From positions 1-59,518 of IMG/VR virus record IMGVR_UViG_3300030372_001749: DNA of 59,518 bases. One strand, given 5' to 3'. The position numbers were made by a program, and so were the translations under genes. This DNA is from a virus (lineage: Duplodnaviria > Caudoviricetes). The notes under the pieces were generated by a model. That model made no database searches. It worked only from the letters and a program-made list of their open reading frames with translations, and had not been told where the DNA came from. How positions within the stretch are numbered: the stretch's first letter is position 1; each line of letters starts with the position of its first letter. Positions 3,032 to 35,913 of this stretch are shown here, piece by piece.

Positions 3032-3034
3032 AGA

Positions 3035-4047: not shown

Positions 4048-4290
4048 TTATTTTAAATCAGGGTTAGGCGGAAGTGACCACCCGTTAGCAGGGTCAGCTT
4101 GATAAGCTAACATTTCGCTATGCGTATATTTTTTCTTAGAATCTGCAATCGCTGGTACTGCGTCTGCAGGAAATGATATTATAAATTTATCGTCTGATAA
4201 GTTTTTACGTACTGTATTTGCAGAAGTCTGAATAACTTGTCCGTAGTTAACATCATTCAACTCATCAATATCTAATATACAATATATCAT
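4048..4290 (-). CDS. Hypothetical protein
   Basis: ORF coupled to the LamG gene. Confidence 0.65.
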   Translation of the reverse strand: MIYCILDIDELNDVNYGQVIQTSANTVRKNLSDDKFIISFPADAVPAIADSKKKYTHSEMLAYQADPANGWSLPPNPDLK

Positions 4291-5033: not shown

Positions 5034-5034
5034 T

Positions 5035-5565: not shown

Positions 5566-5572
5566 TTTTTAT

Positions 5573-5746
5573 TTATTTATCGTAAGGGAACATTCGGTTT
5601 AGAGAATCTCTACGTTTGTTACAACCGCAATCTTTTCCTGTAGCCTTTGCTACAGTCTCTACTGCCTTTTTGATTCCTGTAGCTGTAGTAAACTTCTCGA
5701 TACTATCGCCTAGTCCTCTTGATTGTCCTATCCTTGTTCTCTTCAT
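5573..5746 (-). CDS. 57-aa protein with GLGD...CGC..RR..LN motif
   Basis: Read manually; recurrent small phage protein pattern. Confidence 0.7.
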   Translation of the reverse strand: MKRTRIGQSRGLGDSIEKFTTATGIKKAVETVAKATGKDCGCNKRRDSLNRMFPYDK

Positions 5747-5883
5747 TTTTTACATTTACATTTTGAGTATGGACATAAAGGTAATGTAAACATTAGTCTA
5801 CTGATTAACCAGTTCCATCCACACTTCACTTTATTTCCGAATGCAATAAGTGCATTACCCATTCGTATTAATAGTTTTCCCAT
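5743..5883 (-). CDS. 46-aa Cys-containing protein
   Basis: Read manually (MGKLLIRMG...CPYSKCKCKK); ATGA overlap with next gene. Confidence 0.55.
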   Translation of the reverse strand: MGKLLIRMGNALIAFGNKVKCGWNWLISRLMFTLPLCPYSKCKCKK

Positions 5884-5884
5884 C

Positions 5885-6091
5885 CTATCTTTTTTTACAA
5901 CCAAAGTTATTAGCGTAGTTCGCCATCTTCATTACCTTTTCAGAATACTTTTTCTTATTCTTCATTACAGCAGAAGCAGCACTACAAGCATCTTTGAATC
6001 CGTTATTCTTAGCCCACTTAGTAAAAGCACCTTGTCGAGATTCTTTTATCTCTGGAAACTTTTCTTTCTTAGTTCTTCCTTTCGTTGCCAT
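5885..6091 (-). CDS. Small basic protein (GAFTKWA...ANYANN type)
   Basis: ORF track; K-rich. Confidence 0.7.
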   Translation of the reverse strand: MATKGRTKKEKFPEIKESRQGAFTKWAKNNGFKDACSAASAVMKNKKKYSEKVMKMANYANNFGCKKR

Positions 6092-6101
6092 GTGATTTTA
6101 G

Positions 6102-6488
6102 TTATTTATAGTACGTCGGACCTCTAGTACCCTTTACTTTAGTTTTCTTTTTTACAGTTCTACGTTTTTTGGATTTTGGGTCCACTGGAGAAAATTTTCC
6201 ATCAACATATTGGCCTCTAGGAGCTGTTTTAGTTTTTGTAACTTTCTTTTTTAACCTACCAAATTTATCATATTTCTTTTTTACAGTACCTTCAGTAGAA
6301 GTTATTTCCCTTCTATATCCATCATCTGTCTCACTTCTGTACTCAAACTCCTTAACCTCTTTTTTCTTTTTACCTCCTCTTACAATTTTTTTCTTGGTTT
6401 TAGTATATTTTTTCCCTTTTTTTGGTTTGTCTGGTCCATCAAAAGCACTTACTGCTAATGGTTGACTTAAATTTCTACGTATTGCCAT
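6102..6488 (-). CDS. Very basic Lys-rich protein
   Basis: ORF track. Confidence 0.65.
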   Translation of the reverse strand: MAIRRNLSQPLAVSAFDGPDKPKKGKKYTKTKKKIVRGGKKKKEVKEFEYRSETDDGYRREITSTEGTVKKKYDKFGRLKKKVTKTKTAPRGQYVDGKFSPVDPKSKKRRTVKKKTKVKGTRGPTYYK

Positions 6489-6492
6489 GTTT

Positions 6493-6736
6493 TCTTATTT
6501 ACGGATTAATTTTCCTATCTTCTCATTCTAGGTTCAGGACTAACATCTAAAGGTATAGAAGACCTAAATTGTAATTCTTGTTTTTTTTTCTTTCTTTCTG
6601 CCTCTCTTTTTGCATCTACTTGTGCTTTGAGTGCTGCTATTTTTTCTTCTGGTGTAAGCTTACGCTTTTCTACTAGCCTTTTCTTAACCTTTGTAGTATC
6701 TTTTCTTGGCATCTTATTTACGGATTAATTTTCCTA
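6493..6736. repeat. Perfect 25-bp direct repeats (6493-6517, 6712-6736) flanking one gene
   Basis: TCTTATTTACGGATTAATTTTCCTA occurs twice. Confidence 0.9.
6515..6712 (-). CDS. Basic hypothetical protein
   Basis: ORF track; lies between the direct repeats. Confidence 0.6.
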   Translation of the reverse strand: MPRKDTTKVKKRLVEKRKLTPEEKIAALKAQVDAKREAERKKKKQELQFRSSIPLDVSPEPRMRR

Positions 6737-6929
6737 AGTGTCCTTTAACACTTGATGGGTAACCTTTTTCATATCCCATTGAGTGGTCTCCACCATAAGC
6801 GTGTCCGTAATCTTTTTTAGACATTGCTTTAGACTCGTCTCTACGGTCTTTCATTGATTGTGAGTGAGCACCTCTGTGCTTCATTCCTAAAGACTCATCA
6901 AGCCTTGCGTTGTAACCTTGCTTTTTCAT
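6714..6929 (-). CDS. Small protein (QGYNARLDESLG...RRDESKAM type)
   Basis: ORF track; promoter at 6950-6957. Confidence 0.7.
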   Translation of the reverse strand: MKKQGYNARLDESLGMKHRGAHSQSMKDRRDESKAMSKKDYGHAYGGDHSMGYEKGYPSSVKGHLGKLIRK

Positions 6930-6968
6930 TTTAACGTATATTTATTTTACAAAGATAATAATTTTCTT

Positions 6969-7139
6969 TTAATACCCTGACACAGTTTTCTTTTCCATCC
7001 CATAACCTGGGTTATTCTTCTTAGAACCACCCATTAGTTTAGAAAACCAATCGGCTTGTGCTTTACCTGGTGCATTGTAAGGGAAAGTCTTCTTCATTTT
7101 TTTTCCTGTATCTGGACAGGAGTATGTAACTGTTGGCAT
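6969..7139 (-). CDS. 56-aa basic protein MPTVTYSCPDTGKKMKKTFPYNAPGKAQA...
   Basis: Read manually; promoter TATATTTG at 7157-7164. Confidence 0.65.
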   Translation of the reverse strand: MPTVTYSCPDTGKKMKKTFPYNAPGKAQADWFSKLMGGSKKNNPGYGMEKKTVSGY

Positions 7140-7177
7140 AATTTTGTAATTTTATACAAATATACAAATTTAATTTA

Positions 7178-7636
7178 ATGATAGAGAGAGACTACAAGTT
7201 CAACCCAGGGTACGACTATATGAAATACTGGAGGGTTATACGCTACTGGGCGAAGGCTAAGTACAAGATAGGTACACCCGATATAGATATGCTATTCTTC
7301 CTATACAGCGAACAGATTTTTAACAAGACAAAGTTTAAGGAGTTTGAACAGTGCATGTCGTGGGATGAACCAAGATTTCATAGGCTTCTAAAGGAAGGAT
7401 GGATACATGTTTGGCGGAAGAAGGCCGGGAAAGAGACAACACTATACGAGCTGTCCTATAAAGGTAAAAGACTTGTTACCGCACTATACCAAAAACTAAA
7501 CGGGGAGGAGATTGGTGAAAGCCCATCTATGAACCCACTATTTAGACACGATGCATCTTATATGGATAAGGTCTACCGTAATATGATTATAGAGATGAAT
7601 AAGTTTATAAAACAACAACGACACTCCGCTCAGTAA
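7178..7636 (+). CDS. Winged-helix (MarR-like) putative regulator
   Basis: RLLKEGWI...LYELSYKGKRLV wing pattern; lone plus-strand gene in the late arm. Confidence 0.6.
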   Translation: MIERDYKFNPGYDYMKYWRVIRYWAKAKYKIGTPDIDMLFFLYSEQIFNKTKFKEFEQCMSWDEPRFHRLLKEGWIHVWRKKAGKETTLYELSYKGKRLVTALYQKLNGEEIGESPSMNPLFRHDASYMDKVYRNMIIEMNKFIKQQRHSAQ

Positions 7637-7862
7637 TCACCGTATACGGATTATCCTCGATTAACATCTCGTGACTACCCGACTCATCGTAGTAGATGAT
7701 GTCACCATCGTCTATTACCTCAACATCGGTACCCGACTTTACAACCTCGCCTTTCTTATATCGAAACTCCGAAGCATCTTGAGCAGATAGTAATAACCCA
7801 GACTCTGTCTTTAACTCTTCCTTAATCTTTTTAATTATAATATATTTTCCTATTGGCTTCAT
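7605..7862 (-). CDS. groES: Co-chaperonin GroES (Cpn10)
   Basis: MKPIGKYIII...KTESGLLL...GEVVKSG...GDIIYY; near groEL. Confidence 0.88.
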   Translation of the reverse strand: MKPIGKYIIIKKIKEELKTESGLLLSAQDASEFRYKKGEVVKSGTDVEVIDDGDIIYYDESGSHEMLIEDNPYTVITERSVVVVL

Positions 7863-8002
7863 TCTTCAAAATCATTTTCAACAACAATATGTAAACTAAC
7901 TAGCGGTAAGTACAACGCATGGGTAGTAAATCCTATATCGTGATAAGACCTCATCCCTATAACTATCCCTGGATAAAACCCAACGTTTACTTCAAAGCTC
8001 AT
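7859..8002 (-). CDS. 47-aa hypothetical (MSFEVNVGFYPGIVIGMRSY...)
   Basis: Read manually; ATGA overlaps on both sides. Confidence 0.55.
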   Translation of the reverse strand: MSFEVNVGFYPGIVIGMRSYHDIGFTTHALYLPLVSLHIVVENDFEE

Positions 8003-8142
8003 CTTACGTTTAATGGTATTGTCTTAGTTAACCAATCCTCAAAAGAAATATTTACAGGTATAAACCCTTTTCTTTTAAAAGATATATAATATCCCCATTC
8101 TTGTTGGCGTTGTTCTTTGGTTAATAGTTTACTTGCTTTCAT
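7999..8142 (-). CDS. 47-aa hypothetical (MKASKLLTKEQRQQEWGYY...)
   Basis: Read manually; ATGA overlap with groEL stop. Confidence 0.5.
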   Translation of the reverse strand: MKASKLLTKEQRQQEWGYYISFKRKGFIPVNISFEDWLTKTIPLNVR

Positions 8143-9710
8143 TCTTTTCTTGCGTGTGTTATAATTGCATTAGTAGTTAGGATAGTTGTAGCAACACTGA
8201 TTGCGTTTGTCAATGCCTGTGTCGTAACCTTCGCTGGGTCTACTACACCCATCTCAAACATATCGCCATACTCTCCTGTTACCACGTTATACCCTTCATT
8301 CTTTTTTAACTTCTTGTCATAGATACTAGCACTATCCAAACCAGCGTTCTTTAAAATCTGTGCTAGTGGGGCACGAAGCGTGTCACGCAAAATTTTATTT
8401 TTAGTACTATCGCCTTTATATTTCTTAGCTAACCTATCTAGTAATAACCCACCACCAGCAACAATACCCTCTTGCAGAGCTGAACGTACCGCACATACCG
8501 CATCATCTACCCTATCGAACTTTTCTTTCTGCTCAATATCAGAGGTAGCACCAACGTATATACAACCTATACCTCCTACTAAACTTGCAATGCGTTCATT
8601 GACAAATTCACGCTCCGCCTTGTTTGTTAATCTCTCCTGTTGCTCACGCAACTCCTCAACCCTCTTAGTAATCTCATCGGTAACCTGGTTATCTTTGATA
8701 ATGATTGTAGAGTCTTTACCTACGATAATCTTGTCTGCATATCCTAGGTCCTCCATACGGATTAGTGACAGGTCATCGCCCGTACTCTCCGAGAAGTATT
8801 TAGCCCCAACAGATAATGCAATATCCTGCATCAGCTCGTGAGAACGGTAACCAAAAGAAGGAACTAAGATGTTACAGAACTTTAAACCGTTTCGCTGAAC
8901 GTTAGCAGCAAGCGTGTTGATAACGTTCCCCGAACAATTCCCAATGATAAGTAACTTCTCGCCACCATTAATGATTGGCTTGAGCACATTCTCAATCTGC
9001 AGGATGTTAGTAATCTCGGTATCACATACCAATATCTTTACACCATCGAGTATACACTCATCCTTACGGTGGTCATTGATAAACATCGGTGAGGTATATC
9101 CCCTATCAACCTTTATCCCATTAGTAACCTCCGCATAGGTCTTGTCGGTTTGTGAACGCTCAACAGTAACAATACCATCATGACCAACCTTTCTATACGC
9201 ATCCGCTATAATCCCGCCAATCTCACTATCGTTATTGGAAGAGATAGTAGCAATATCCTCTAGCATATCATCCGTAACCTCAACAGACTCCTTAGCAATG
9301 TCTGCTAAAAGTTTATCTCCCTCCTTACGAATCTCTCGTACCACCTGTATCGTATTCTCGTTCTCACCAATGTGAGACTCTCCAGCTTTTACCAAAGCCT
9401 CGGTCAATACAATAGCGGTAGTAGTTCCATCACCCGCAGTGTTCGCTGTCTTCTCTGAAGCCTGCTTCATCATACGAACCGCTAAGTTCTCTACAGGGTC
9501 CATTAAGAAAACAGACTTAGCAACCGTTACACCATCCTTGGTAACAGTCAACCCTTGTGTATGTTCACCTGATTCAATTAACACCGTCTGGCCTTGAGGC
9601 CCTAGTGTGCTCTTTACAGCGTTGGAGATTTTTGAGATGCCTGATATTAACTTCTCCCTAGCATCGTCATCGAAAGATAGGTCTTTCGGAATGTACCCTT
9701 GTTCGTTCAT
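8139..9710 (-). CDS. groEL: Chaperonin GroEL (Cpn60)
   Basis: TLGPQG, VTKDGVTVAK, AGDGTTTA, GIVAGGG, GVVDPAKV. Start set at MNEQG, downstream of promoter 9735-9742. No GGM tail. Confidence 0.97.
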   Translation of the reverse strand: MNEQGYIPKDLSFDDDAREKLISGISKISNAVKSTLGPQGQTVLIESGEHTQGLTVTKDGVTVAKSVFLMDPVENLAVRMMKQASEKTANTAGDGTTTAIVLTEALVKAGESHIGENENTIQVVREIRKEGDKLLADIAKESVEVTDDMLEDIATISSNNDSEIGGIIADAYRKVGHDGIVTVERSQTDKTYAEVTNGIKVDRGYTSPMFINDHRKDECILDGVKILVCDTEITNILQIENVLKPIINGGEKLLIIGNCSGNVINTLAANVQRNGLKFCNILVPSFGYRSHELMQDIALSVGAKYFSESTGDDLSLIRMEDLGYADKIIVGKDSTIIIKDNQVTDEITKRVEELREQQERLTNKAEREFVNERIASLVGGIGCIYVGATSDIEQKEKFDRVDDAVCAVRSALQEGIVAGGGLLLDRLAKKYKGDSTKNKILRDTLRAPLAQILKNAGLDSASIYDKKLKKNEGYNVVTGEYGDMFEMGVVDPAKVTTQALTNAISVATTILTTNAIITHARKE

Positions 9711-9744
9711 CGATTTAATTAAATTTAATTTCTGCAAATATAAT

Positions 9745-9957
9745 AAAAATCTTTACATATATAAAATGATATTATGACAATTTTTAAAATCTCTATTTGT
9801 ATATATATATTTACTATTATATATATTATTTTTTTATTTATAAAATTAGTTTAAAATTAACATATCGACATAAATTAATATAACTATACTGAAAACTAAG
9901 AAGTTATGAAAAATGACTTCGACATAATTTCGACATTACTATGTCAACTTGTGTCAT
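9745..9957. other. AT-rich origin-like region A with TYRACAT iterons
   Basis: Non-coding, AT-rich core; TTAACATATCGACATAAA, TTCGACAT twice, inverted ATGTCAA. Confidence 0.5.
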
Positions 9958-9990
9958 AAAAAAAGGGTGGACCTAAGTCACACCCCTTTC
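9958..9990 (-). terminator. Intrinsic terminator
   Basis: GGGTG..GAC-TTAG-GTC-CACCC hairpin followed by T7 on the minus strand. Confidence 0.75.
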
Positions 9991-10011
9991 TTGTCGAACA
10001 AATGGAAACGT

Positions 10012-10206
10012 TTAAAATTCTAATTGTCTAAAATTCTTTTTGTTTTCTGCAAGCTCTATTGCCTCTGCAATCTGATTTATCTTTCTGTCGTTCTTAACAG
10101 CACGCTTAATGCGAGAAGCCTCAGCTATACCAGTTTCTCCATCAGGTCTCTTGTTCATCAACCTACCGTCCTTTACAAATAATCCTTCTACGTAATCGCT
10201 TATCAT
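10012..10206 (-). CDS. Hypothetical protein (GLFVKDGRLMN)
   Basis: Has its own promoter (10222-10229) and terminator. Confidence 0.7.
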   Translation of the reverse strand: MISDYVEGLFVKDGRLMNKRPDGETGIAEASRIKRAVKNDRKINQIAEAIELAENKKNFRQLEF

Positions 10207-10221
10207 GTCTTTTCTTTTTTA

Positions 10222-10229
10222 CAAAGATA
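10222..10229 (-). promoter_or_regulatory. Bacteroidota sigma-A -7 element TATCTTTG (representative minus-strand promoter)
   Basis: TAnnTTTG also at 1331, 6950, 7157, 9735, 38485, 47666, 47989, 48426, 51893 and 54404, each just upstream of a gene start. Confidence 0.75.
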
Positions 10230-10378
10230 TAAAATTTTTTCAGATATCTGGAAGTAAAGGGTTCTACGCCGCCATACGCAACCGACCCCCCATTTAAAAG
10301 TAGGGGGGGCTATGACTTTGTTTAGGCAATTCCCAAATTTTTTCTGCAACTTTTTACCTTTTTTCCTACAGCCCTTGT

Positions 10379-10480
10379 CCTAGCTAGGCTATAGCTGTTG
10401 TGCTACGTAGCTACCTAGCTTTGTCGCTGTTGTCCTAGCTGTAGCTCTAGCTATTTACCTAGTACTAGCTGTAGCTGTGC
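10379..10480. repeat. Short-repeat array (nine TAGCT in about 100 bp)
   Basis: Counted directly; in the non-coding strand-switch region. Confidence 0.85.
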
Positions 10481-10499
10481 GATTATTATCTACTATACA

Positions 10500-10515
10500 G
10501 TCTCGTTAACGAGAC
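10500..10515 (+). repeat. GTCTCG-N4-CGAGAC palindrome, copy 1
   Basis: GTCTCGTTAACGAGAC. Confidence 0.9.
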
Positions 10516-10683
10516 CTTCAAAACATTACGAGACGTAAAGAGGGAAGGCTATATGCCCCCAATGAACAAAAGAATAACAAACAAAAGACCAAATCTTAAA
10601 AAAAATTTCCCTTACTACCATTGGGATACAGAGCAAAATGTAAATTAATTTAAAAAACTGCATTGTAGAACGGATAATTATAC

Positions 10684-10691
10684 TATCTTTG
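10684..10691 (+). promoter_or_regulatory. First early promoter, -7 element TATCTTTG
   Basis: TAnnTTTG with an upstream TTG at about -33. Confidence 0.7.
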
Positions 10692-10695
10692 AACT

Positions 10696-11622
10696 ATGAA
10701 AGCACAAACAATGTACGAAAATATTGCTAACTCGCTGATAGTCAGTAAGTTAGGCCATAAGGCTTGTGTAACTAGCTGTTTATCAGCACAAAACGAAAAA
10801 AAGGCTGATATCAGCACAAATCAATTAATTATGAGTAATGTAACTGTTAACAAATCAGAAGGTTTATTTTTAAACGGTACAGTAGTAAAGAAAGCTATCA
10901 ATAAGGAGGCTGTTCTAGAACATTTGAATATGGCGCAAAAATGTGTAAATGAGAAATTTCGTCAAGAGGTTGAGGCATCAAATCTAATAGCTGATGCTTA
11001 TGCTTGGTTTACATCTAAGAAGTCAGAGGCACAGCGTACGAAATACGCTATCAAATGGACAAAAGAAGAGTTTGGTCAGAAGGCATTTGGCTTATCTAAA
11101 GCACAATTCTACAAGAAGGATGCACTAGGTAAGACAGCTTTAGAAGTTGTTGAAGGTTTTATTACTGCTGATATAACGGTAAGAATGAACGGTCTAAAAC
11201 ACAGTTTATCAATTGAGGCGTGTAACAAATTCACTAACCAATATGTGGTTAAGGATGTAACAAAAATGACTAAGAAGGAAGCAAAAAAATGTATTTCAGA
11301 TGCGATAGCGAAATACGTTGAAGATGCTAAAAACGGTAAGCTATCTAAGGCTAAGGCAAAAGGTAAGTCTGATGCTAAGGATAAGGCTAAAGGTAGTAAG
11401 AATCGTATTACTGTATCGATGTCTAAGTACGGTGGTGACAAAGGAATGTCGCTAAACATAGACAAAGACGGTAAGCTACAAGCGATGACGCCAAACGTAG
11501 ATAAGAAGATGGCGACAAAGCTGATTACTGACCTAGCGAAAGCGTTCAAGGATGCGGGTATCTTCGCTGATGGTAAAGTACCAAGTGAAGTGAAGGCTAT
11601 ACTAGAAACGGTTAAGCTATAG
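10696..11622 (+). CDS. First early protein, Lys/Ala-rich, possible DNA-binding (alternative start 10831)
   Basis: HTH-like TKEEFGQKAFGLSKAQFYK and a basic linker. ATG 10696 would be leaderless; ATG 10831 has a typical A-rich context. Confidence 0.75.
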   Translation: MKAQTMYENIANSLIVSKLGHKACVTSCLSAQNEKKADISTNQLIMSNVTVNKSEGLFLNGTVVKKAINKEAVLEHLNMAQKCVNEKFRQEVEASNLIADAYAWFTSKKSEAQRTKYAIKWTKEEFGQKAFGLSKAQFYKKDALGKTALEVVEGFITADITVRMNGLKHSLSIEACNKFTNQYVVKDVTKMTKKEAKKCISDAIAKYVEDAKNGKLSKAKAKGKSDAKDKAKGSKNRITVSMSKYGGDKGMSLNIDKDGKLQAMTPNVDKKMATKLITDLAKAFKDAGIFADGKVPSEVKAILETVKL

Positions 11623-11630
11623 GAAAAAAT

Positions 11631-11658
11631 GCGAGGGTCTCGTCAGCGAGACCTTCGC
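11631..11658 (+). repeat. Palindrome copy 2 with extended stem
   Basis: GCGAGG-GTCTCG TCAG CGAGAC-CTTCGC. Confidence 0.9.
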
Positions 11659-11659
11659 T

Positions 11660-11708
11660 CCTTACTAGGATGTGTATCCTAGCTGATGATTCCAAAAGGA
11701 TGAAAAGG
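11660..11708 (+). ncRNA. Hammerhead ribozyme, type III
   Basis: CCTTA^ CTAGGAT-GTGT-ATCCTAG CTGATGA T TCC-AAAA-GGA T GAAA AGG. Core CUGAUGA/GAAA and stems I-III present; predicted cut after A11664. Confidence 0.8.
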
Positions 11709-11733
11709 TAACTAAAAATTAAAATTTATTGAA

Positions 11734-11907
11734 ATGAAAAAATTAAATTGGGGAACGTGGTTGTGTATAATCACAGCTGTGTTAAGTATTATTGGAATGT
11801 GTATCTGCGATTGTGTAGATATCAATATGGAAGGGATATTTGCATTAACTACGCTGGCTTCAATCTTTGGAATTATAGCGTCTATGATGGAGGCTGAAGG
11901 ATATTAA
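11734..11907 (+). CDS. 57-aa two-TM membrane protein
   Basis: Read manually: MKKLNWGTWLCIITAVLSIIGMCICDCVD...FALTTLASIFGIIASMMEAEGY. Confidence 0.65.
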   Translation: MKKLNWGTWLCIITAVLSIIGMCICDCVDINMEGIFALTTLASIFGIIASMMEAEGY

Positions 11908-11919
11908 AATTATAAATCA

Positions 11920-11945
11920 GCAGGGTCTCGTCAGCGAGACCTTGC
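11920..11945 (+). repeat. Palindrome copy 3 with extended stem
   Basis: GCAGG-GTCTCG TCAG CGAGAC-CTTGC. Confidence 0.9.
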
Positions 11946-11959
11946 ATAAACCAAAACAA

Positions 11960-12196
11960 ATGAAAACAATTATTAAAACAGTAGTATGTTTAACGATAGC
12001 TTTCACTAGCTACGGACAAACAAAAAAAGACAGCGTGACAATTGATAGATTCCAAGTACAAGAAATCTTAAACACGATTGAGGATTTAATAGAATGGAAT
12101 AAAGAAGATGAGTTTAATGGCCAAGAACCTAGAACGAATGAAAACTATTGGTTAGGTAAAATGAGAGATGAATTAATTAATGAACTAAAAAAATAG
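11960..12196 (+). CDS. Exported small protein (signal peptide)
   Basis: MKTIIKTVVCLTIAFTSYG-Q resembles a Bacteroidota SPI signal with Gln at +1. Confidence 0.65.
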   Translation: MKTIIKTVVCLTIAFTSYGQTKKDSVTIDRFQVQEILNTIEDLIEWNKEDEFNGQEPRTNENYWLGKMRDELINELKK

Positions 12197-12198
12197 GT

Positions 12199-12345
12199 AT
12201 GAGAGAAGAAGAATATTACGACACATTACTTTTGTGTAGTGGCTTTACACAAGAACAAATAAATGATATGTCAGACGAGGACAAAGAAATGAATTTAGGA
12301 ATGTTATACAATGCTATTCATTGTGCGTTTTTTAAAACTAGATAA
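12199..12345 (+). CDS. 48-aa acidic hypothetical
   Basis: Read manually; fills the gap between ORFs. Confidence 0.45.
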   Translation: MREEEYYDTLLLCSGFTQEQINDMSDEDKEMNLGMLYNAIHCAFFKTR

Positions 12346-26562: not shown

Positions 26563-29500
26563 TTATTCTCTCTCTATAAATTCTTCTTCCTCAAACTCTA
26601 CATCATCAAACTCTGGTGATATATCTTCTTCTATAAATTCTTGCTCTTCAAATTCCATTCCTTCATCGTCACCCGAATCTTTATCTTTTTTAGATTTCTT
26701 CTTACTTGCGGATTTCTTTCCAGCTCCAGGTCTGTAAGACTTAGATATTCCTAGTAAATCATACATACTCTCTTCAAAGTCTTCAGTGTCCGAGCCTATC
26801 CCTAAATTAAATAAACCAATAAAAGGGTCTACTCGTGTGCCTAATATTATTTCTGTTATAGGTTTAACGCTACCCCATATGTTTCCATATTTTTTTACAT
26901 CCTTAGTAAGTTGGTATCCTACACTTAGAAAAGGATTGATTATAGCATTATTAAATTTACGTTTTTTCTTGTATTCTTTTTCGGAGTCTAGTCCTGCAAT
27001 AAGTCGTTCAAATAAATCCCACTCTTCTATAGCTGCTCCTAGTACTGGCATTTGATATACAAGGTTAGCACCCATTAATGCTTTTTGAACCTTCTCCCAA
27101 TATTCTTCCTGGTCTTCATCATCACCCATTAATAGTTTACTTAGATTAGACACTCCAATAAACAAAGCATTTGCTATTGCTACATTTAAATAGAAAGCCC
27201 TGATATCTTTTCGTCTAGGTTTCTCACCCTGTTTAATACTACGCATAATGTTTGTCATACTAGACAACGCTTTATTTATCTGTAAGAAAACCACACTACC
27301 AAACATAGTGAAGGTACGTGTGAGATAATTTTTACTTAGTTGTATCGGTGCTTTTTCTGTACCTCTTCGGGTTTGCTGAGTAGCGTTATAGTTATTTAAT
27401 TTTGTTACTGCCTCGTCTAGTGGCATACCATTTTTAATATCTCTATTAAAGTTTACCATGTATCCCATAACTCCAAGTATATCTCCTATACTTGTTGGTA
27501 ATCCAGCCGCAGTCTTAAAACCTCTACCTATAATACCCGCTCTATTCATCTTTTGACTTACAGGTTTAAATAAACTTTGACCTGACTCTAAGGCATATAT
27601 CTCTCCTTTCATACCCTTCTCTATCCTATCTCTAAAGGTAGCAGATACATCCATAGCCTTACGTATAGGACCTTTAACGCCAGGCACCACCATACCAATT
27701 ATATCTTTAGTTATTCCTGCATACGTAGAAGCCACATCTACTGTAAACATTAATGGGTCTATTAATGTACGGACTGCAGCAGGTACGTTAGAACCTTTCT
27801 TAAAAAAGCTATAGTCCTCATAAGCATTCACAAAAGATGTAGCCTGCTTAGGTATCTGTACTATTTTAAATGCTAACGAGAAACCAATAAACCTATTCTG
27901 CATCCAATTTAAAAATTTATTATCTATTATCTCTTTAGATAAAGCATAAGGGTTAACCGTATTATTAATTGTAATGTTTAATACTTTTCTAATTTGTAAT
28001 CTATTTATTAGATTAGACACATCATTATTCTTCATGAATGCATTAATATTACTAACGGGAATAGCATATGCTTTGTATTTCTCCATACTCATCACATGGT
28101 TTTCTAGGGTTTGTGTAAAGTCAGAAGCTGTAAGTTTTATATCAGACTCTTTATCTACCCTGGCCTTAAAAGCAGGAGCTGTTTCAGCTTGAAAAATAGA
28201 ATTAAACTCACCTTGTTTAACCATATCTTTAGTAACATCACCCCGTTCGGTCTGAGTAGGAAAGTAGTTATCTATCTTTGGTAGGTTAATATTATTTATA
28301 CTAGAGTATACATTGTTTACCCCTTCATAGTAAGAGTTACTCAAGAACTCTACTAACCCATCCGTAAACTCTACAATCTCCTTACCTAGTATCTCTTTTA
28401 TTTCAGCTATCTTCTTATCATCAATCCCCTGCTTTTCAAGCTTCGCTCTTTGAACATCATTTAAGCTTAAAGCATAGATACGCATAAGCTCATCTGGTGT
28501 AAAGTCTATTTTTTCTACATTATCTGTATCAGTATTTTTTACTCGGAAGGAATAAGTTTTATTTTTTCCTTTAAATAATAATCTTTTTATACCGTTATAA
28601 CCTTCTTTAACACCCACTCGTTTAGCGATATCATCTATCTTAGCACGTGTTTCAAATGCCCCTTTCAACTCTTGTTCATTAGCGTTATTTAAACTATCAT
28701 ATATTACTTTTCTAAATACATTCAACCCTTTAGTAGCATTATCTAGTAGATTAGTAAGTGTACCAAGATGTCTGAACTGATTTTTAGCAGTTTCTATACT
28801 ACTACTCACTCTACTATAATTAAACAGTTTCGTAAATTGTTTCCATCCCTTCACAAACTTTCCTTGTCTAAAAGCTTTGTATATATCTTTACGTCTTTGA
28901 TTAAATTCAGTGTCATTTAATATTTTTCCATCTTTATTATATAGCTCAGGATTAGTATCCTTTATCTGCTCACTAGCCTCCTCATTTATTTTCTTTCTTC
29001 TTTCTGCTCTAACTTCTTTGTTTATCTTAAGCTGTGCACGTGAGTCTTTTGCTGTGTCTTGTAGTGTTTTAATTATAGATTTAACTTCTTCTAAACTTTT
29101 TTCTTGGATACCTTCCAATAAGTCTAGAGCTACCAACGTATTTAAATCTTTTTGTTCATCTACTGTAAGCGTTTCTTTTAAAATAATTTCATCTATCTCC
29201 GCTTGCCTATCTAAGAAGTCCTGTTTTAGTTTCTCAATCTTATCTATATCTCCATCTAATATTATTTTAAGGATAGGTTTCATATCTTTAAAAAATTGTA
29301 TACCTTCTTTATCTAACTTACCTTTACTTCTTATATTTCCACTAGAAGTTTTTTTGGTTGTTGTATTATTTTTTACAAAGATTCGTATATCGTTTATTAG
29401 CTTGCTTTTTATTTTCTTTTCTTGAGTTTTTACTTTCTCTATAATCTTATCTACCTTCACTGCAAAGTTAGCTGGAGTAGTTGTCTCTATATCTTTTATA

Positions 29501-32500
29501 AAACTATTAATCTGAGCTACACTATACCCTAAGTCTTTAGGTAGGCTGGCTCTAATAAACTGTCTAAGCTCTCTCTGTTTAGTTCTAATAGTTTTGTCTG
29601 TAATCTTTATCTGCTTAAGGTTTCTTTTAATATTTTCTAACTCTTTTCGTACAGACTTTTCTCTAAACCTAACACCTAGATTTTCTTTTAGATTATTCTG
29701 GAAACCAAGTATAATCTTTTGCTGTGTCTCGTTAGATTGTTTTTTGTATATAGGGTTTTCTTTTATAATCTCTAACGCCTTAACCTGTATTTCTTTAGGG
29801 GTTTTGGTTCTAACACCTGGCTTACCTTTACCTCCACGTGGACCTTGTATAGCAAACTTAGACACCTTATCCATGGTGTCTTGATATAATTTAATAGCTT
29901 GAGTTATACCTCCTTCTATACCCATAAATTCTTTTGGTAAAGTATCTTGATAATTAAAAGGTTCTACTTGATTAAGAATCTTAAACTCCATTGCTTCATT
30001 TATATCCTTGAGTTTAAATTTCTTTTCTTTTAATACCTCTATGATAGCCTCATCAGAATAATTATTATCTCTACCTATCTTTATAACCTGGTCTATAGTA
30101 TTACTAGATGGGGTACTCATAAGTTGTAATGCGTCTGAGAAAGATTTAACCTCAGCCTCTACAAACAACTCGTTCTCTGATAGCAGGTCTACTGCTACAG
30201 ACTCTACGAACTCCTCAAATGTCATGTTCTGCAACTGCTCTGCAGTAACCTTAGATATACCAACTAACTTTTTAACGTAGTCAAATAAATCTTTTAACCA
30301 TGTCTTGAAACTTCTCTCCTGTGCAGCAGTAGCAAAAGCTTCTCCTTGGTCACCGATAGCTGTAGCTAATGCCTCCTCTCTGATGTATTTATTTATCTCC
30401 TCCTCAGTAGAGCCATCCTTACGCATCTTTTTTATTACTCGCTGATAATCTGCATTATCTTTTATCTGCTGTATATAGTCGGAGTTCTCTACTAGCTCCA
30501 TACCTTTCTTGTATAGCTCAGGTCTTCCTTCCTTTACAGTGTTCAACCATATGTGACCAAACTCATGCACTGGTGTATTAAAGTTTTCTAATGCAGGATT
30601 AAGAAATAGCTTGCCCTCGTATACTGCACCATATATCTTTTGGTTTTTAGTAGATAAAGCCTTAGCATTTAAATCTTTTAGTAGTGCATCGAACTCTTGT
30701 TCTGTAGCTACAATCTCTACAGAAGGGAATGCTTTAGATAGCTTACGCACAAACTGTGTGTACTGAACAGCGGTAGGCTCGGTAACCTCAAAAGCTGTCG
30801 ATGCCTTCATTGTTGCTGAACGATATGCATTACTTCGTGCTTCCTTAGCAGTTATCTTTTTATCTATATCCTTTATATCTTTTATATTCCCAAACTTCTT
30901 AGTAATAAGAGTAGTAGTTTTTGTCTTGGTACTTTTTGGTATTACCTCTGAACTCTCCTCTTTATTTGTCTCACCTTTTTTTATTAAGGTTACAGTACGA
31001 GTCTTGTTAGGATTATTAGAAACCTTCACTACTCTTTCTTCACCATCTATATCTACCTTATAAGTCTCTCTCTTTTTAATAAGACCTGCAGTTTTTAGGT
31101 CTATAGTATTCTTATAGTTCTTGTTAAGATTCCAGAACGGAACTGTCTCCTTCATTATACCTATTGCCTTACCTCTAATATATATTGGGTAGTTGGTATG
31201 AGATGGTAGACCTTCTGCCTTCTGTTGCTCTGGTGTTATTAATGCCTCACTTCTAGTAGCTTTTGTTATAGGGTTACCCTTCTTATCTGTAACCTGTAGC
31301 ACTGTAGTTATGGCACCCATAGGTAGGTCACTTACAAACTGCTCTACATTCTCTTGTCTAATAGACTCCTGGCTTATACCTTTATCTTGAAAAAGCTTAC
31401 CAACCTTTGTGTCAGCCTTAACATCTGCAGATGGTAACACAGCCTTGAATATCTTTGCTCTATCGTCCACACCTAACTCTGCAAATCCCTCAGCAAACTC
31501 ATCTATATTCTTAGACTCCTGTATCTTTTTATTTGTCTTAATTTTTTTACCTAACACATCTTCCTTCATAGCCTCAAAAATCTCAACAGAGTTATCCGCT
31601 GTCTTAACCTTTTCAATTAATGTGTTAAGGTTAACAGTGTTAGAATCTAAGGCAGATGGTTTCATATTAAAGACCACAGTGTAGTCTCCTTTTATTGCAC
31701 CATCTATAATCTTATTAGCAGCAGTCGTATCAATAGAAGCCCATGCAACCTTACCAAACAATGAATCCATCAAAGGAAAGAAAGGGCCTCCCATTTGTTT
31801 AGGTTTACCCTCTTTATCTAAAGCCTTTTCATCTACCTTTAACTGGTCAGCCATCACAAGATTTATCTTCTTGCCTACCAATTCTTTTAGACCCATCTTC
31901 TTTACCTTGTTCGCTAGCTCTGTATTCTCTGTAATAGTTATAGGTATAACATTAGCTGGAGCTGGTTCGTCTACTACCTCTGCTTTCTCTTCTAACTCAG
32001 GAAGCTTCTCATTCATCTTTGCTTGAGCCGCCTTAACTAATGAGTTCATCTTCTCTTCTGATACAGTCTTCCCATCTAACTGAAGCTGTACGGTAGCATC
32101 ATTATTTAAAACCTCGATTAAATCGGAAGCTTCTTTTTTTATTAAAACCTCCTTTTGATGTAGCCCTTCTGCAAATTTTTGTACACTAGCCTTACTAGTC
32201 TTTTGCTTATTAGCTACCATTCTTTTCTTAGCCTCTCTTTTGTAGGCTGTTTTTTGTTTAGGAGTTAGGTCAACAAACTCTTCTACTACTTCCGTCTTAA
32301 GGATTTCTGTCGGCGTTTCTTGAACACCTTTTTCAATCTCTGCTTCGGTCGTACCTTCTCCGGTAGTGATGATGGATTCGGTGTCTCCTTCAACCACTGG
32401 TCCACCCACTGTGGTTTGTTCTTCCTCAACCACCTCAGTTGGGCCTTGCTTTGTACTGGCATCTTCTTCAGTTTTAATTAATGAATCTTTATTTATTTCT

Positions 32501-35500
32501 TTATCAAATAATGCGTAACTAATTACTGCTTTTTCATCTATTGTACCCGCAGGTCTCTCTACAAAAAGAGCACCATCAAAACCTGCATTTTCAATGTGCT
32601 CCATAAACTGACTACCTGCAGCCCAATCATTTAAACCATCTCTTCCCTCTGCACTTTTTCTCATGGATGCTACATAATTATTGTAATCCTTTAACGCATC
32701 CTCTTTAGAATCATATTCTATTTCTAGTTCCTCATTATTATTTAAAAATCCTTGCTTTAATCTTTCAACATGCTCTTCATTCCTTAGGTCGAATAGATTA
32801 TTTTTCTTTTCTTCAGTTATAGTAAGCTCAGTAACAGTTCCTTCAGGACCTGCTCCTTTATATCCCTCTGCATATTTTTTAGAAGGAGTTAAAAATATAG
32901 CACCTGACTGTCCTTTTTTAATAACACCTCCTTCTATAGGTGTAGGAGAACCATGATATACTACTTCCGTTTTCTCACTAACCTCTTCTACTTTACCTTC
33001 TTTCTTTACCTCACCTTCAATAGTCTCCTTTACTACCTCTTTCTGTGTATCTTCAATAGTATTAATTACATCATCGACACGTTTCTTTTGGTCGGCATTT
33101 AACTTATTATATCGTGCCTTAACATCACTAGGCTGCATCATTCCAAAAGCAGTACCCATAGCAAAAGACCCTACAATAAACTTCATGTTCTCATCAAAGT
33201 CTCCAAACCTTTCTGTAGCCGCTTCCCAAAATCCTTGGTCTCCTAGATTACTATTATATAACTGAGTAAGCTCTTGTATTGTTTCTTCAGCTACCTCACC
33301 TTGACCTCTAGAAATAATCTCCCCTGCACGTTGAATAAGGTATACAGCACGTTTACCTTCTTTACCAAACTTACTAGCTACAGATTTTACTAGCGTGCTA
33401 ACAGGTATTTTACCTGCCACCTTTTGTATAAGTTCGCCACCTAACGTACCTAAAAATCCACCCTCAAAACTTAACTCTTCTTGTTGATTATCAAATACAA
33501 TTCCTGCTGTCTCAAATTCCACACCCTGTTGTAAAGCTTTTTTAACAAACCTACGAGTAGCGTTTTTATCCATAGCTTTGTTGTAATTCTTTGCTATCCT
33601 TTTAACTAAGGCATCTTGGGTTGTCATTTTTTTCAAACCTGTTCCTCTCTTTGTAATACCAAGAGTACCTACTATAGCAGAAGTAGAACCACTCATGTCT
33701 CCCCAAAATTCAAACGAATCTAAATCTGTTTCCGTTATCTTCTCTAATTGTTCTACTATATCTTCTTCGGTATAGTCATCTGCTGTGACACCTAATTCAG
33801 GAAGACCTCTCAATTGGTCTTGTATCATACCCGTTTGGGATTTAATTCCAGACTCACCCACTAAACCTTTAGCAAAGGCCGCACCAAACGCATCAAAGAA
33901 ATTACTATCTTCTTTAGATATACCAGGAGTATTAGTTAAAAGAATAGGAGCTAGGTTATTTAAGAGCTCTCTGTTAGCAAGCCACTCTTTTTCTTTTTTA
34001 CCTACGTTTAAACCAAGCTCTTTAACATTTAATAGTCTTCGTGCTCCTCTACCCATCGCACCTAATATTGACCCTTCACTAAAACCACCCTCTTCTCTCA
34101 GACGATTAGTCTCTTCTCTTAATTGATGGTAAGCTCTTTGAAATTGCTCATAACTACTAAGTCCTTCTATCTTCTCACTAAACGCTGCTCTTGCAGATGG
34201 AGATAACTCCATTGCTACTTTTGTTTGCTCTATAATTTCGTCAGGACTTGTTTTTAATATACTTGTAACTTGAGTACCTTCCGCTAGTATTTCGTCACGC
34301 ATCTTATCTGCATCCGCTTCAGTTTTTTTAATCCTTGCAGCGAGGTCTTTATATTCAGTAGAGTTTTTATCTAATGTTGCAAGTTTAGCTTGAGCATTTC
34401 GTATTCGAGTTACTAGCTTTCCAAACGTTTCTCTTTTCTCTGTTACACCGTCTCTATAAGTTGCGATGCTATTATCTTCTGCCGCTTGCACTGCATTAAG
34501 TAAAGACTTAACATCCATTTTTATAACTTCTTTAGCTGAATCATCAACCCCTTCTTTAAAGTTAACACTACCATCACTGTTTAATGAATCTATAAGAGGT
34601 TGATTGGCTAAATACTTATCTAACTTTCTTTTAGCGGTATACAACATTTTTACCATCTCGACATCACCCTCTCCATTTAATTCATAATTTTTTAACTCTG
34701 CGTCATTAAGGTCTATTATATATTGTTTTTTATTTTTTCCCTCGTATGCAGCTCTAACATCTAATTTTTTATCGAAAGAAGTGTTATCCATTTTACCTTG
34801 AAGCCTTGTGTATTCCTCTTCAAGAATGTTATATTTTTCCCTACTTGTTTTTCCTTTATCGAATAATGTTTTATTTGCAAATTCCTGAAAAGTTTTTATA
34901 TCATTTAACTCCTCAGCTGTAGCCTTGTCTCCTATAAAATATCTAGCAACATCTTGTTCCGCTAACGTTTGATATTCACCTAAAACTCTATTGATTGTAT
35001 CATCTGAAACCTTTTGGTCAACTTTAAATTTTGGTCTTTGTACATCACTAGAAGAAGACGCCATTCCTATAGTACTTAAAAGACTAAATATACTTCTAGG
35101 TTCGCTAGTCTGTTCCTCTTCAACCAAAGTAAATGTACCTAGTTTCTCTTCCTCTGTAGGGGTTCTAGATAATGACTCATCAAACTCTCTAGTTTTTTGG
35201 GTTAACCTTAAAGCTGAACCTGTAGCCTGAGTTTGCTCAAACTTCTCTTGATTTATAAGCTCACTATACCGCTCTTCTATTTCTTGGTGTTTCTCAGGTG
35301 CTGAGTTTTTTAACTCTTGTTCTTTTGCAGCTTCAAGACCTGCTATATTTTCTTCTGATTGTGCTGTAGTAACACCATATTTTTTATCCCACTCCTCTTG
35401 AGCCACTTTTAATGAGGCCGCCTCCATCATGTTATTTATGTTGTAAGAATTTCCTGTTAAAGGATTAATACTTTCATTTGTAGGTCTAACATTTTCAGGA

Positions 35501-35913
35501 GTAGGTATTTTTAAACCTTCTAAATTTAAATCCTTAGTCTCCTCAATACCTCTATCTTGTTCTTGTATTTTCGGTGAACCATCTGTAATAACATCTTCTT
35601 CGACTACGGCATCAACATCAACTTCTTTTTCGGAAGACTCCGATGTACCAATGTTTTCCTGAACGTCCTCGATAACAACATCCGTATCTTCCTCTTGAGA
35701 AATAGGTTGAGATTCGTCTTTTTTTTTTAAACCGAATAAATCAGATAAGTCTTCTTCAGAACCCTTATAACCTTGACTAACAAAATATTCATGTGTTTTT
35801 TCAAGGGCACTACTATTTGTATTTAATAATTCTTTATAGTCGTTTATATCTCCTTTGTAACCTTGATTAACAAAACTATTAAACCCTCTTGTTACAGCTT
35901 TTTCATTTGGCAT
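26563..35913 (-). CDS. Giant (3116 aa) polyvalent ejection/virion protein with zincin metallopeptidase and ART-like domains
   Basis: HEFGH plus downstream EEALA; YHGSP...IFLTP...AGFDG; position after the ejection genes; acidic C-tail. Confidence 0.8.
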   Translation of the reverse strand: MPNEKAVTRGFNSFVNQGYKGDINDYKELLNTNSSALEKTHEYFVSQGYKGSEEDLSDLFGLKKKDESQPISQEEDTDVVIEDVQENIGTSESSEKEVDVDAVVEEDVITDGSPKIQEQDRGIEETKDLNLEGLKIPTPENVRPTNESINPLTGNSYNINNMMEAASLKVAQEEWDKKYGVTTAQSEENIAGLEAAKEQELKNSAPEKHQEIEERYSELINQEKFEQTQATGSALRLTQKTREFDESLSRTPTEEEKLGTFTLVEEEQTSEPRSIFSLLSTIGMASSSSDVQRPKFKVDQKVSDDTINRVLGEYQTLAEQDVARYFIGDKATAEELNDIKTFQEFANKTLFDKGKTSREKYNILEEEYTRLQGKMDNTSFDKKLDVRAAYEGKNKKQYIIDLNDAELKNYELNGEGDVEMVKMLYTAKRKLDKYLANQPLIDSLNSDGSVNFKEGVDDSAKEVIKMDVKSLLNAVQAAEDNSIATYRDGVTEKRETFGKLVTRIRNAQAKLATLDKNSTEYKDLAARIKKTEADADKMRDEILAEGTQVTSILKTSPDEIIEQTKVAMELSPSARAAFSEKIEGLSSYEQFQRAYHQLREETNRLREEGGFSEGSILGAMGRGARRLLNVKELGLNVGKKEKEWLANRELLNNLAPILLTNTPGISKEDSNFFDAFGAAFAKGLVGESGIKSQTGMIQDQLRGLPELGVTADDYTEEDIVEQLEKITETDLDSFEFWGDMSGSTSAIVGTLGITKRGTGLKKMTTQDALVKRIAKNYNKAMDKNATRRFVKKALQQGVEFETAGIVFDNQQEELSFEGGFLGTLGGELIQKVAGKIPVSTLVKSVASKFGKEGKRAVYLIQRAGEIISRGQGEVAEETIQELTQLYNSNLGDQGFWEAATERFGDFDENMKFIVGSFAMGTAFGMMQPSDVKARYNKLNADQKKRVDDVINTIEDTQKEVVKETIEGEVKKEGKVEEVSEKTEVVYHGSPTPIEGGVIKKGQSGAIFLTPSKKYAEGYKGAGPEGTVTELTITEEKKNNLFDLRNEEHVERLKQGFLNNNEELEIEYDSKEDALKDYNNYVASMRKSAEGRDGLNDWAAGSQFMEHIENAGFDGALFVERPAGTIDEKAVISYALFDKEINKDSLIKTEEDASTKQGPTEVVEEEQTTVGGPVVEGDTESIITTGEGTTEAEIEKGVQETPTEILKTEVVEEFVDLTPKQKTAYKREAKKRMVANKQKTSKASVQKFAEGLHQKEVLIKKEASDLIEVLNNDATVQLQLDGKTVSEEKMNSLVKAAQAKMNEKLPELEEKAEVVDEPAPANVIPITITENTELANKVKKMGLKELVGKKINLVMADQLKVDEKALDKEGKPKQMGGPFFPLMDSLFGKVAWASIDTTAANKIIDGAIKGDYTVVFNMKPSALDSNTVNLNTLIEKVKTADNSVEIFEAMKEDVLGKKIKTNKKIQESKNIDEFAEGFAELGVDDRAKIFKAVLPSADVKADTKVGKLFQDKGISQESIRQENVEQFVSDLPMGAITTVLQVTDKKGNPITKATRSEALITPEQQKAEGLPSHTNYPIYIRGKAIGIMKETVPFWNLNKNYKNTIDLKTAGLIKKRETYKVDIDGEERVVKVSNNPNKTRTVTLIKKGETNKEESSEVIPKSTKTKTTTLITKKFGNIKDIKDIDKKITAKEARSNAYRSATMKASTAFEVTEPTAVQYTQFVRKLSKAFPSVEIVATEQEFDALLKDLNAKALSTKNQKIYGAVYEGKLFLNPALENFNTPVHEFGHIWLNTVKEGRPELYKKGMELVENSDYIQQIKDNADYQRVIKKMRKDGSTEEEINKYIREEALATAIGDQGEAFATAAQERSFKTWLKDLFDYVKKLVGISKVTAEQLQNMTFEEFVESVAVDLLSENELFVEAEVKSFSDALQLMSTPSSNTIDQVIKIGRDNNYSDEAIIEVLKEKKFKLKDINEAMEFKILNQVEPFNYQDTLPKEFMGIEGGITQAIKLYQDTMDKVSKFAIQGPRGGKGKPGVRTKTPKEIQVKALEIIKENPIYKKQSNETQQKIILGFQNNLKENLGVRFREKSVRKELENIKRNLKQIKITDKTIRTKQRELRQFIRASLPKDLGYSVAQINSFIKDIETTTPANFAVKVDKIIEKVKTQEKKIKSKLINDIRIFVKNNTTTKKTSSGNIRSKGKLDKEGIQFFKDMKPILKIILDGDIDKIEKLKQDFLDRQAEIDEIILKETLTVDEQKDLNTLVALDLLEGIQEKSLEEVKSIIKTLQDTAKDSRAQLKINKEVRAERRKKINEEASEQIKDTNPELYNKDGKILNDTEFNQRRKDIYKAFRQGKFVKGWKQFTKLFNYSRVSSSIETAKNQFRHLGTLTNLLDNATKGLNVFRKVIYDSLNNANEQELKGAFETRAKIDDIAKRVGVKEGYNGIKRLLFKGKNKTYSFRVKNTDTDNVEKIDFTPDELMRIYALSLNDVQRAKLEKQGIDDKKIAEIKEILGKEIVEFTDGLVEFLSNSYYEGVNNVYSSINNINLPKIDNYFPTQTERGDVTKDMVKQGEFNSIFQAETAPAFKARVDKESDIKLTASDFTQTLENHVMSMEKYKAYAIPVSNINAFMKNNDVSNLINRLQIRKVLNITINNTVNPYALSKEIIDNKFLNWMQNRFIGFSLAFKIVQIPKQATSFVNAYEDYSFFKKGSNVPAAVRTLIDPLMFTVDVASTYAGITKDIIGMVVPGVKGPIRKAMDVSATFRDRIEKGMKGEIYALESGQSLFKPVSQKMNRAGIIGRGFKTAAGLPTSIGDILGVMGYMVNFNRDIKNGMPLDEAVTKLNNYNATQQTRRGTEKAPIQLSKNYLTRTFTMFGSVVFLQINKALSSMTNIMRSIKQGEKPRRKDIRAFYLNVAIANALFIGVSNLSKLLMGDDEDQEEYWEKVQKALMGANLVYQMPVLGAAIEEWDLFERLIAGLDSEKEYKKKRKFNNAIINPFLSVGYQLTKDVKKYGNIWGSVKPITEIILGTRVDPFIGLFNLGIGSDTEDFEESMYDLLGISKSYRPGAGKKSASKKKSKKDKDSGDDEGMEFEEQEFIEEDISPEFDDVEFEEEEFIERE
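32286..32462 (-). CDS. Nested +1-frame gene, 58-aa basic protein MPVQSKAQLRWLRKNKPQWVDQWLKETPNPSSLPEKVRPKQRLKKVFKKRRQKSLRRK
   Basis: Read manually; A at -3/-6/-12/-13 of the ATG; double TAG stop; locally raised GC. Confidence 0.7.
   Translation of the reverse strand: MPVQSKAQLRWLRKNKPQWVDQWLKETPNPSSLPEKVRPKQRLKKVFKKRRQKSLRRK

Follow-up and report, generated by a model that had tools for sequence, protein, structure and literature searches.

Can the gene for a giant phage virion protein carry a second, separately translated gene within one of its linkers? The question is raised by the virus record IMGVR_UViG_3300030372_001749 (Duplodnaviria; Caudoviricetes), which is complete (59,518 nucleotides (nt), CheckV 100%) and is referred to below, at its full length, as the window. 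The last gene of its structural operon, at 26563..35913 (-), encodes a 3116-amino-acid (aa) giant virion protein of the 'polyvalent' type (ORF list and translation; ORF, open reading frame). Within this gene an ATG-initiated ORF of 58 codons plus a TAG stop lies at 32286..32462 (-). The two starts are 3451 nt apart (35913-32462, 1 mod 3), so the small ORF occupies the +1 frame of the giant gene. A preliminary description of this DNA had proposed a real dual-coding region here, and the ORF list with its translations returned exactly the 58-aa peptide that it had named, called P0001 in what follows. Homology to a protein family, a nested position retained in relatives, a switch of substitution periodicity and initiation signals all bear the proposal out. 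From these comparisons we consider it very probable that 32286..32462 (-) is a real, selected and separately initiated coding gene. Judged by its sequence, the 58-aa peptide belongs to a large family of small basic proteins that is specific to viruses.

The nested ORF and the family of its product

The nested ATG is preceded by ttaattaaaactgaagaag, and the ORF ends ...cgg aag tag tag, the second in-frame TAG lying directly 3' of the stop codon at 32283..32285 (-). Start context and double TAG are both present as described earlier, and so is the locally raised GC content: it reaches 0.472 at 32260-32439, the maximum of 32 GC windows in 31000-34000 (range 0.317-0.472). The product consists of a MPVQSKAQ.. 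helical hairpin, then a KETPNPSSLPEKV motif and then a K/R-rich tail. Over the same interval the giant main frame reads EDASTKQGPTEVVEEEQ... and is acidic in the window. Eight further ORFs of 40-113 aa in other frames or strands overlap 31000-34000 (ORF list). Since alternative-frame ORFs are common in this gene, the length of the nested ORF is not beyond chance; its homology is.

The family to which P0001 belongs is large and almost purely viral, with the pattern MPFKSKAQ..W..KETP..LP plus a basic tail. Its N-terminus is MP[FILV]xSxxQ (residues 1-8; P0001 begins MPVQSKAQ), and M1, P2, S5 and Q8 are invariant in a 29-sequence alignment (A2). The core, which P0001 fits, is a ..RW[ML]..N.P....W two-helix hairpin followed by a KETP..LP.KV segment and the K/R-rich tail, in 40-62 aa. 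P0001 is 64% identical to the copy at locus L168 and 45% to the free-standing copy L006. We searched with a degenerate DNA pattern for MP..SKAQ..KETP, built from residues common to P0001 and the peptide of the Flavobacterium phage Elemovirus, and found at least 119 viral loci. All 119 of the listed loci have in-frame ATG ORFs (40-85 aa); they encode 86 distinct peptides, which are alike also at positions that the pattern left free. The same pattern occurs at eight places in 596 Gb of prokaryote genomes, five of them in frame and family-like and three out of frame, the latter serving as a baseline for chance.

A hidden Markov model (HMM) of the 86 peptides, with the window left out, gave P0001 59.5 bits over model positions 1-51, and the next of 1467 six-frame pieces 5.7 bits. 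The A2 profile matched 1631 protein clusters at E <= 1e-3; among the matches listed (120 clusters) the proteins are 41-125 aa long, carry no Pfam domain and, where named, are named only 'hypothetical protein'. AlphaFold2 on A2 (predicted local distance difference test, pLDDT, 84.4) placed helices at residues 6-15, 17-26 and 41-57. With this model Foldseek returned nothing from the PDB at E <= 0.001 (the best matches, mitoribosomal chains at E 3-9, were treated as noise). In BFVD it returned uncharacterised small phage proteins, including gp9 of Mycobacterium phage Barnyard and a protein of Streptomyces phage Fabian, and the top five fold matches there had probabilities of 0.99-1.00. The kinship with free-standing MP(F)xSKAQ phage proteins, which the preliminary description had stated, is therefore confirmed by pattern search, HMM, BFVD folds and A2 profile.

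Annotation resources hold little on this family. No Pfam model covers its domain (0/9 and 0/80 members matched, 80 at E <= 0.1). The PHROG family phrog_1375, also of small phage proteins but of unassigned function, matches 6/9 members over most of their length (E 1.8e-5 to 0.02), although P0001 (E <= 1) and the Elemovirus-type copy L062 give no match to it; the PHROG holds no information on function or nesting. The nearest Atlas cluster to carry a Pfam family at all (score 0.86) has DUF3008 (PF11450) in 15% of its members, which is no more than a lead. Kinship with DUF3008 was rejected, as PF11450 was matched by 0/9 and 0/80 members and not by P0001. With family members as queries, tblastn against cultured phages gave few matches, the short queries and the low-complexity filter being limiting.

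A subfamily of the peptides carries two cysteines (..KACY..NPKWDCKKW..) in place of the M/L and A of the main type; it includes the copies at L001 (6001..6129), L195, L016, L021, L058, L062 and others. The window peptide is without the two cysteines, which fall in the two predicted helices; such a placement points to a contact, a disulfide or a metal site.

Conservation of the nested frame in relatives

To find relatives without reference to the peptide, viral contigs were searched with the C-terminal module of the giant protein only (residues 1918-3068; alignment A1), which is homologous in the 73 viral loci obtained. The peptide HMM matches 55 of these loci, with an ATG at the predicted Met in 54 of the 55. 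At 47 of the 73 loci the giant ORF contains the small ORF in its +1 frame; the small ORF is 42-61 codons long in this set, and the giant frame stays open for 477-1269 codons on the upstream side and for 1212-2455 on the downstream side. The +1 frame is thus intact and in the same nested position in these homologous giant genes. At a further seven loci the ORF lies immediately 3' of the giant ORF and overlaps the giant stop; one locus, L179, contains Ns, and placement there is ambiguous. Among the 18 loci without a match, nine lack upstream sequence and nine have full flanks. At L158, around 7620 (+), there is no HMM match, and an ORF starts MPFKSQAQ and then diverges, possibly as a frameshifted remnant.

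Cultured or deposited phages show the same arrangement. Elemovirus MT497067.1 has a 42-codon ATG ORF, MPFKSKAQMKACYSQDNPKWDCKKWSKETPNKKSLPNKVKKK, in the +1 frame of its giant coding sequence (CDS), where it is unannotated. The closest GenBank phage by portal (68% identity), MW202828.1 (L195), has a giant CDS of 3859 aa at 741..12320 (-) and an equally unannotated 43-codon ORF nested in its +1 frame at locus 9593..9724 (-). The label 'reticulocyte binding/rhoptry protein' on this CDS is almost certainly spurious. The peptide of MW202828.1 is of the two-cysteine subtype, unlike that of the window. Cultured kin of the low-GC relatives that share the C-terminal module infect Flavobacteriia.

We then compared 67 pairs from 45 of the peptide-blind nested loci, counting differences per site at the three codon positions of the main frame; inside the overlap, a third position of the small frame coincides with position 1 of the main frame. 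The upstream flank gave.239/.177/.375 at main-frame positions 1/2/3 and the downstream flank.263/.257/.323, so both flanks peak at position 3. The overlap gave.224/.129/.100, and position 1 was the most variable within it in 62/67 pairs. As to constraint at synonymous sites, then, the substitution phase switches to the +1 frame within the overlap in nested relatives. Nine pairs from the pattern-found set made the same switch (.224/.056/.049 in the overlap). When the columns forced by the pattern were removed, differences at small-frame positions 1/2/3 were.314/.281/.430 for nested and.270/.265/.531 for free copies. Nested copies had an amino-acid identity of.595 when read in the small frame and of.426 when read in the main frame.

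The window itself could be compared with L168 and L171. In an alignment made on the +1 frame, 35/55 residues are identical in that frame and 17-18/55 in the main frame, and nucleotide differences at small-frame positions 1/2/3 number 16/14/32.

Initiation signals at the nested start and alternative explanations

The leader of the nested start (32463..32492, (-)) is A-rich and weakly structured, as judged from A fraction and fold energy. Its A fraction at -20..-1 is 0.55. Across 42 low-GC copies with the C-terminal module, the window included, the fraction before the nested ATG is 0.588, compared with 0.364 at 5310 control out-of-frame ATGs. The region -30..+30 folds with -3.0 kcal/mol in the window, compared with -7.6 +/- 3.0 kcal/mol for 181 other ATGs of the giant gene; only 4.4% of ATGs in the gene are as open as the nested start. 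The window leader has no Shine-Dalgarno motif, as expected for a Flavobacteriia host. Elsewhere such motifs do occur: 16/23 pattern-found deep-nested copies have a Shine-Dalgarno-like motif at -18..-5, compared with 133/1391 out-of-frame control ATGs in the same giant ORFs. An initiation signal is therefore found in the window, as an A-rich open leader, and at the nested starts of relatives, as Shine-Dalgarno-like or A-rich leaders. Homologues exist, the +1 frame is uninterrupted in relatives and the start carries a signal, so none of the findings that would have spoken against the original proposal was made. We propose that translation of the peptide would begin internally and independently, at the small gene's own ATG on a long late mRNA, in an A-rich, unstructured leader like those of Flavobacteriia-phage relatives.

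Several points weigh against a functional nested gene. The compared pairs are phylogenetically dependent and the comparison is not a tree-aware test, so p-values from it overstate support. A close relative of the window's giant gene was not found, and the flanks are unalignable even with MW202828.1 (they differ by ~45% at the nucleotide level, which makes periodicity uninformative for that pair); the periodicity switch is for this reason shown in relatives, not in the window's own lineage. The HMM and profile scores are partly circular, because 10 residues were forced by the search pattern and A2 includes the window sequence. P0001 alone matches no Pfam family and no PHROG at E <= 1, and a word-sharing homologue search gave no candidate for it. 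In tblastn against cultured phages it had weak matches (E 0.07-0.4), in 68 Flavobacterium Elemovirus records and all under the giant 'structural protein'. No Bacteroidota-type TAnnTTTG element occurs within 600 nt upstream of the nested start. Internal initiation must compete with ribosomes elongating in the main frame. The nine giant loci with full flanks and no copy show that the nested gene is dispensable or relocatable. As to function, the neighbours of free-standing copies are varied and mostly unannotated, with only a handful of portal or head genes (the few annotated ones in PHROG scans were portal, head-tail adaptor, scaffold, head-assembly and HNH genes). With no TAnnTTTG element in those 600 nt, an internal promoter of the Bacteroidota type was rejected; translation would thus be from the operon mRNA.

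The alternative that survives best, although improbable, is that the giant ORF took in a small gene which can still be recognised but is no longer translated in the window phage, where only the main frame would be functional. The lack of a dedicated promoter element would suit such a fossil, as would the nine giant genes with full flanks that lack the gene and the degraded look of the L158 copy. The window copy, however, keeps its ATG, its 58-aa length (equal to that of free-standing L006) and all family-defining positions. Its differences from L168 and L171 fall twice as often or more at the third small-frame position as at either of the others, and nested copies as a class are under +1-frame constraint (62/67 pairs). 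It is also the single copy of the peptide gene in a complete genome, and its start region is unusually open.

Programmed frameshifting is very improbable as the source of the peptide. A +1 shift would make a truncated giant protein with a basic tail, or a -1 shift in the Lys-rich tail would join the peptide to the downstream part of the giant protein. The geometry would allow it, since a -1 step leads from the small frame to the main frame and slippery A runs are possible in Lys-rich tails; a tag-plus-cargo product would moreover resemble the longer relatives described below, in which the domain is N-terminal and in frame (116/120). Yet the ATG stands at the predicted Met in 54/55 matches, and free-standing copies begin at the same residue. 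In-frame X_XXY_YYZ heptamers occur in 6/67 nested and 5/34 free copies and not in the window's copy, and with slippery heptamers not enriched a -1/+1 frameshift fusion was rejected. By blastp there is no long in-frame form homologous to the window's giant protein, so the long in-frame forms were also rejected as its homologues. Fewer nested copies (1/67) than free copies (5/34) contain a run of at least seven A, with Lys-rich tails in both; the rarity of such runs in nested copies may be avoidance of slippage in the giant frame.

A chance ORF is harder still to credit. Acidic purine-rich codons (GAA/GAG) read in +1 would give a stop-free, Lys/Arg-rich by-product without function, and the peptide does have the K/R-rich tail that such a change of frame should produce; many ORFs of 40-113 aa lie in alternative frames of the giant gene, and P0001 alone matches no Pfam or PHROG family. 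Against this stand the 59.5 bits from an HMM built without the window (5.7 for the next of 1467 pieces), the same ATG ORF in 47/73 peptide-blind relatives, its persistence in relatives whose main frame is not acidic, and substitutions that follow the +1 frame. Conservation at the nucleic-acid level (a recombination junction, RNA structure or regulatory site with an incidental ORF) can hardly be entertained: the element does lie at the junction of a variable upstream part and a conserved downstream domain, and L168 and L171 share overlap and downstream part but differ in upstream modules, whereas variation is concentrated at +1-frame third positions, the ORF is retained throughout with its ATG and its stop, free-standing copies of the protein occur in actinophages with quite different DNA, and the start region is weakly, not strongly, structured.

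The host gene, the origin of the overlap and possible functions

The giant gene has portal and virion structural genes as neighbours, and the Elemovirus homologue of its product is annotated 'structural protein'; the peptide gene of the window thus sits in the structural operon of a complete phage genome. Across the overlap the main frame is a linker that is poorly conserved among relatives. The acidic linker of the preliminary description holds for the window, where the main frame is acidic, but not as a conserved property, the same stretch being basic or polar in L160-L171. Upstream, giant residues 985-1083 (32664..32961, (-)) resemble ART-PolyVal (PF18760, E 0.0038). The region ends ~67 residues ahead of the nested start, where an ART-like domain had been noted earlier; its position stands, and its identity is only weakly supported, the score of 18.4 bits lying below the gathering cut-off of 31.2, so that it is a resemblance only. 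A PDB sequence search with the ART-like region gave no match.

On the other side of the overlap, giant residues ~1258-1458 (31540..32142, (-)) form a conserved main-frame domain, recognised when the 250 aa that follow the small ORF were clustered by blastp. One cluster is common to 50/71 nested loci, window included; window and L132/L134 are 52% identical here (E ~1e-67, blastp), and the domain has no Pfam family. By the same clustering the 200 aa 5' of the nested ORF are varied among nested loci, with the window a singleton. Searching for related loci with the ART-plus-linker segment returned 0 relatives, and blastn of 3 kb around the site found no match among phages. Between the close relatives L168 and L171, and likewise between L160 and L163/L164, overlap and downstream domain are common and the upstream modules differ, which places the nested start at a boundary in the giant gene, either between modules or from recombination.

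Free-standing and fused forms of the family were examined as well. Among the matches listed, 120 copies (119 plus the window) comprise 58 nested, 40 free-standing and 22 intermediate ones. Barnyard gp9 sits in a head-gene region, and gene 48 of Streptomyces phage FlowerPower just ahead of the holin. We found 122 longer relatives (150-2000 aa), with the domain at the extreme N-terminus in 116/120 examined. Fusion partners in 10 scanned proteins were NUDIX+DUF5661, GNAT+InPase, PolyA_pol+HD, LigD_N+ligase, an M48-type peptidase and zinc ribbons. In three uncultured phages (L026, L028, L037) the free small gene lies directly 5' of a 592-634-aa ORF and overlaps the start of that ORF in two. Three downstream neighbours in that scan of free copies matched portal PHROGs. 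At L023/L031, L010 and L074 the frame of the small ORF is open for 77-208 codons 5' of its ATG; a longer protein might there have the small ORF as its C-terminal end, or GC-rich DNA might have left the frame open by chance.

Copies that stand free or form the N-terminal part of a fusion are widespread, including in very distant phages, and the main-frame sequence in the overlap changes charge between relatives. Both points make it probable that the frame of the small gene came first and that of the giant linker later. The giant ORF would have come to read across the small gene, for example by module fusion at a junction that held it, leaving the linker as a weakly constrained frame.

For function, a tentative first candidate is a basic module, expressed late, that would associate with the virion interior, the portal or packaged nucleic acid; in its free form it would act as a small internal protein, and in fusions with enzymes it would serve for anchoring or targeting. 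A specific partnership with the giant protein appears rather unlikely. The suggestion that the peptide is a partner or inhibitor tied to the ART-like domain found no support in that form: the upstream sequence is variable, with the window a singleton, the linker is not conserved, and the family occurs also free near unrelated genes or N-terminal on unrelated enzymes. As the upstream domain is not conserved among nested relatives, an immunity or inhibitor protein for the ART-like domain was rejected; a link specific to that domain is unlikely, and a partner or inhibitor in a general sense is possible. A wider and more speculative idea is that the MPFKSKAQ module might be a portable anchoring or targeting unit of tailed phages. 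Its free form would travel with the packaged genome, its N-terminal form would bring diverse enzymes, among them CCA/poly(A) polymerase with HD, LigD phosphoesterase with ligase, and GNAT with pyrophosphatase, into the virion or onto nucleic acid, and giant polyvalent proteins would repeatedly have grown across the pre-existing gene, with the linker as a de novo frame ('reverse overprinting'). If so, the nested gene would be among the most widely conserved unannotated overlapping genes in double-stranded DNA (dsDNA) phages.

Overlapping genes are known from phiX174, and in phage lambda Rz1 is embedded in the +1 frame of Rz (the spanin genes). As in Rz/Rz1, the nested gene of the window is complete, lies wholly inside a larger phage gene on the same strand and in +1 register, and has its own start and stop; both products would likewise come from one late transcript. 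Unlike Rz, the host gene encodes a 3116-aa multi-domain virion protein, and the overlap covers a linker only. The nested protein, unlike Rz1, is not a lipoprotein or spanin; its gene appears to be the older frame, is also found free-standing and as an N-terminal domain, and varies in position among relatives, nested or just downstream.

For polyvalent phage proteins, packaging and injection have been proposed (Iyer et al. 2017, PMC5512222). As far as the main text of that paper goes, the host gene of the window is like theirs in being giant, multi-domain and at the end of a portal/terminase-type structural operon, and in encoding a sub-threshold ART-PolyVal match (PF18760) and a HEFGH motif; the nested gene is not described in that main text ('overlapping' 0 times, 'frameshift' 0 times). 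Neither the family nor the nested gene is described in the openly searchable literature, from which the string MPFKSKAQ is absent (subscription journals and supplements lie outside this scope). Among the papers listed, those with the string MPFKS are unrelated by title (e.g. PMC12919940). The accessible parts of the literature on Elemovirus hold passing mentions only, and those of the overlapping-gene and small-gene literature nothing on the family.

Gene callers forbid nested genes, and the copy is unannotated in the deposited relatives inspected, MT497067.1 and MW202828.1. Databases therefore fail to show a gene that dozens of marine and freshwater Flavobacteriia-phage lineages have retained. 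Few overlapping genes of large dsDNA phages have comparative evidence as clear as this, the substitution phase switching exactly at the ORF borders. The direction of overprinting seems reversed, with an old small frame and a new giant linker, which is relevant to the way in which giant multi-domain virion proteins expand through fusion. With 1631 clusters, virus-specific, without a Pfam model and N-terminal on varied nucleic-acid enzymes, the family is an attractive target for the question of how phages load or anchor accessory proteins. Cultured relatives exist in Flavobacterium Elemovirus, Mycobacterium phage Barnyard and Streptomyces phage FlowerPower.

Two further features of the giant protein lie downstream of the overlap. 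The HEFGH motif, at residue 1783 (30553..30567, (-); located by sequence position, with no Pfam match), is putatively of the zinc-metallopeptidase type. The C-terminal tail (26563..26700, (-)), for which there is no Pfam family, is extremely acidic (..DDEGMEFEEQEFIEEDISPEFDDVEFEEEEFIERE).

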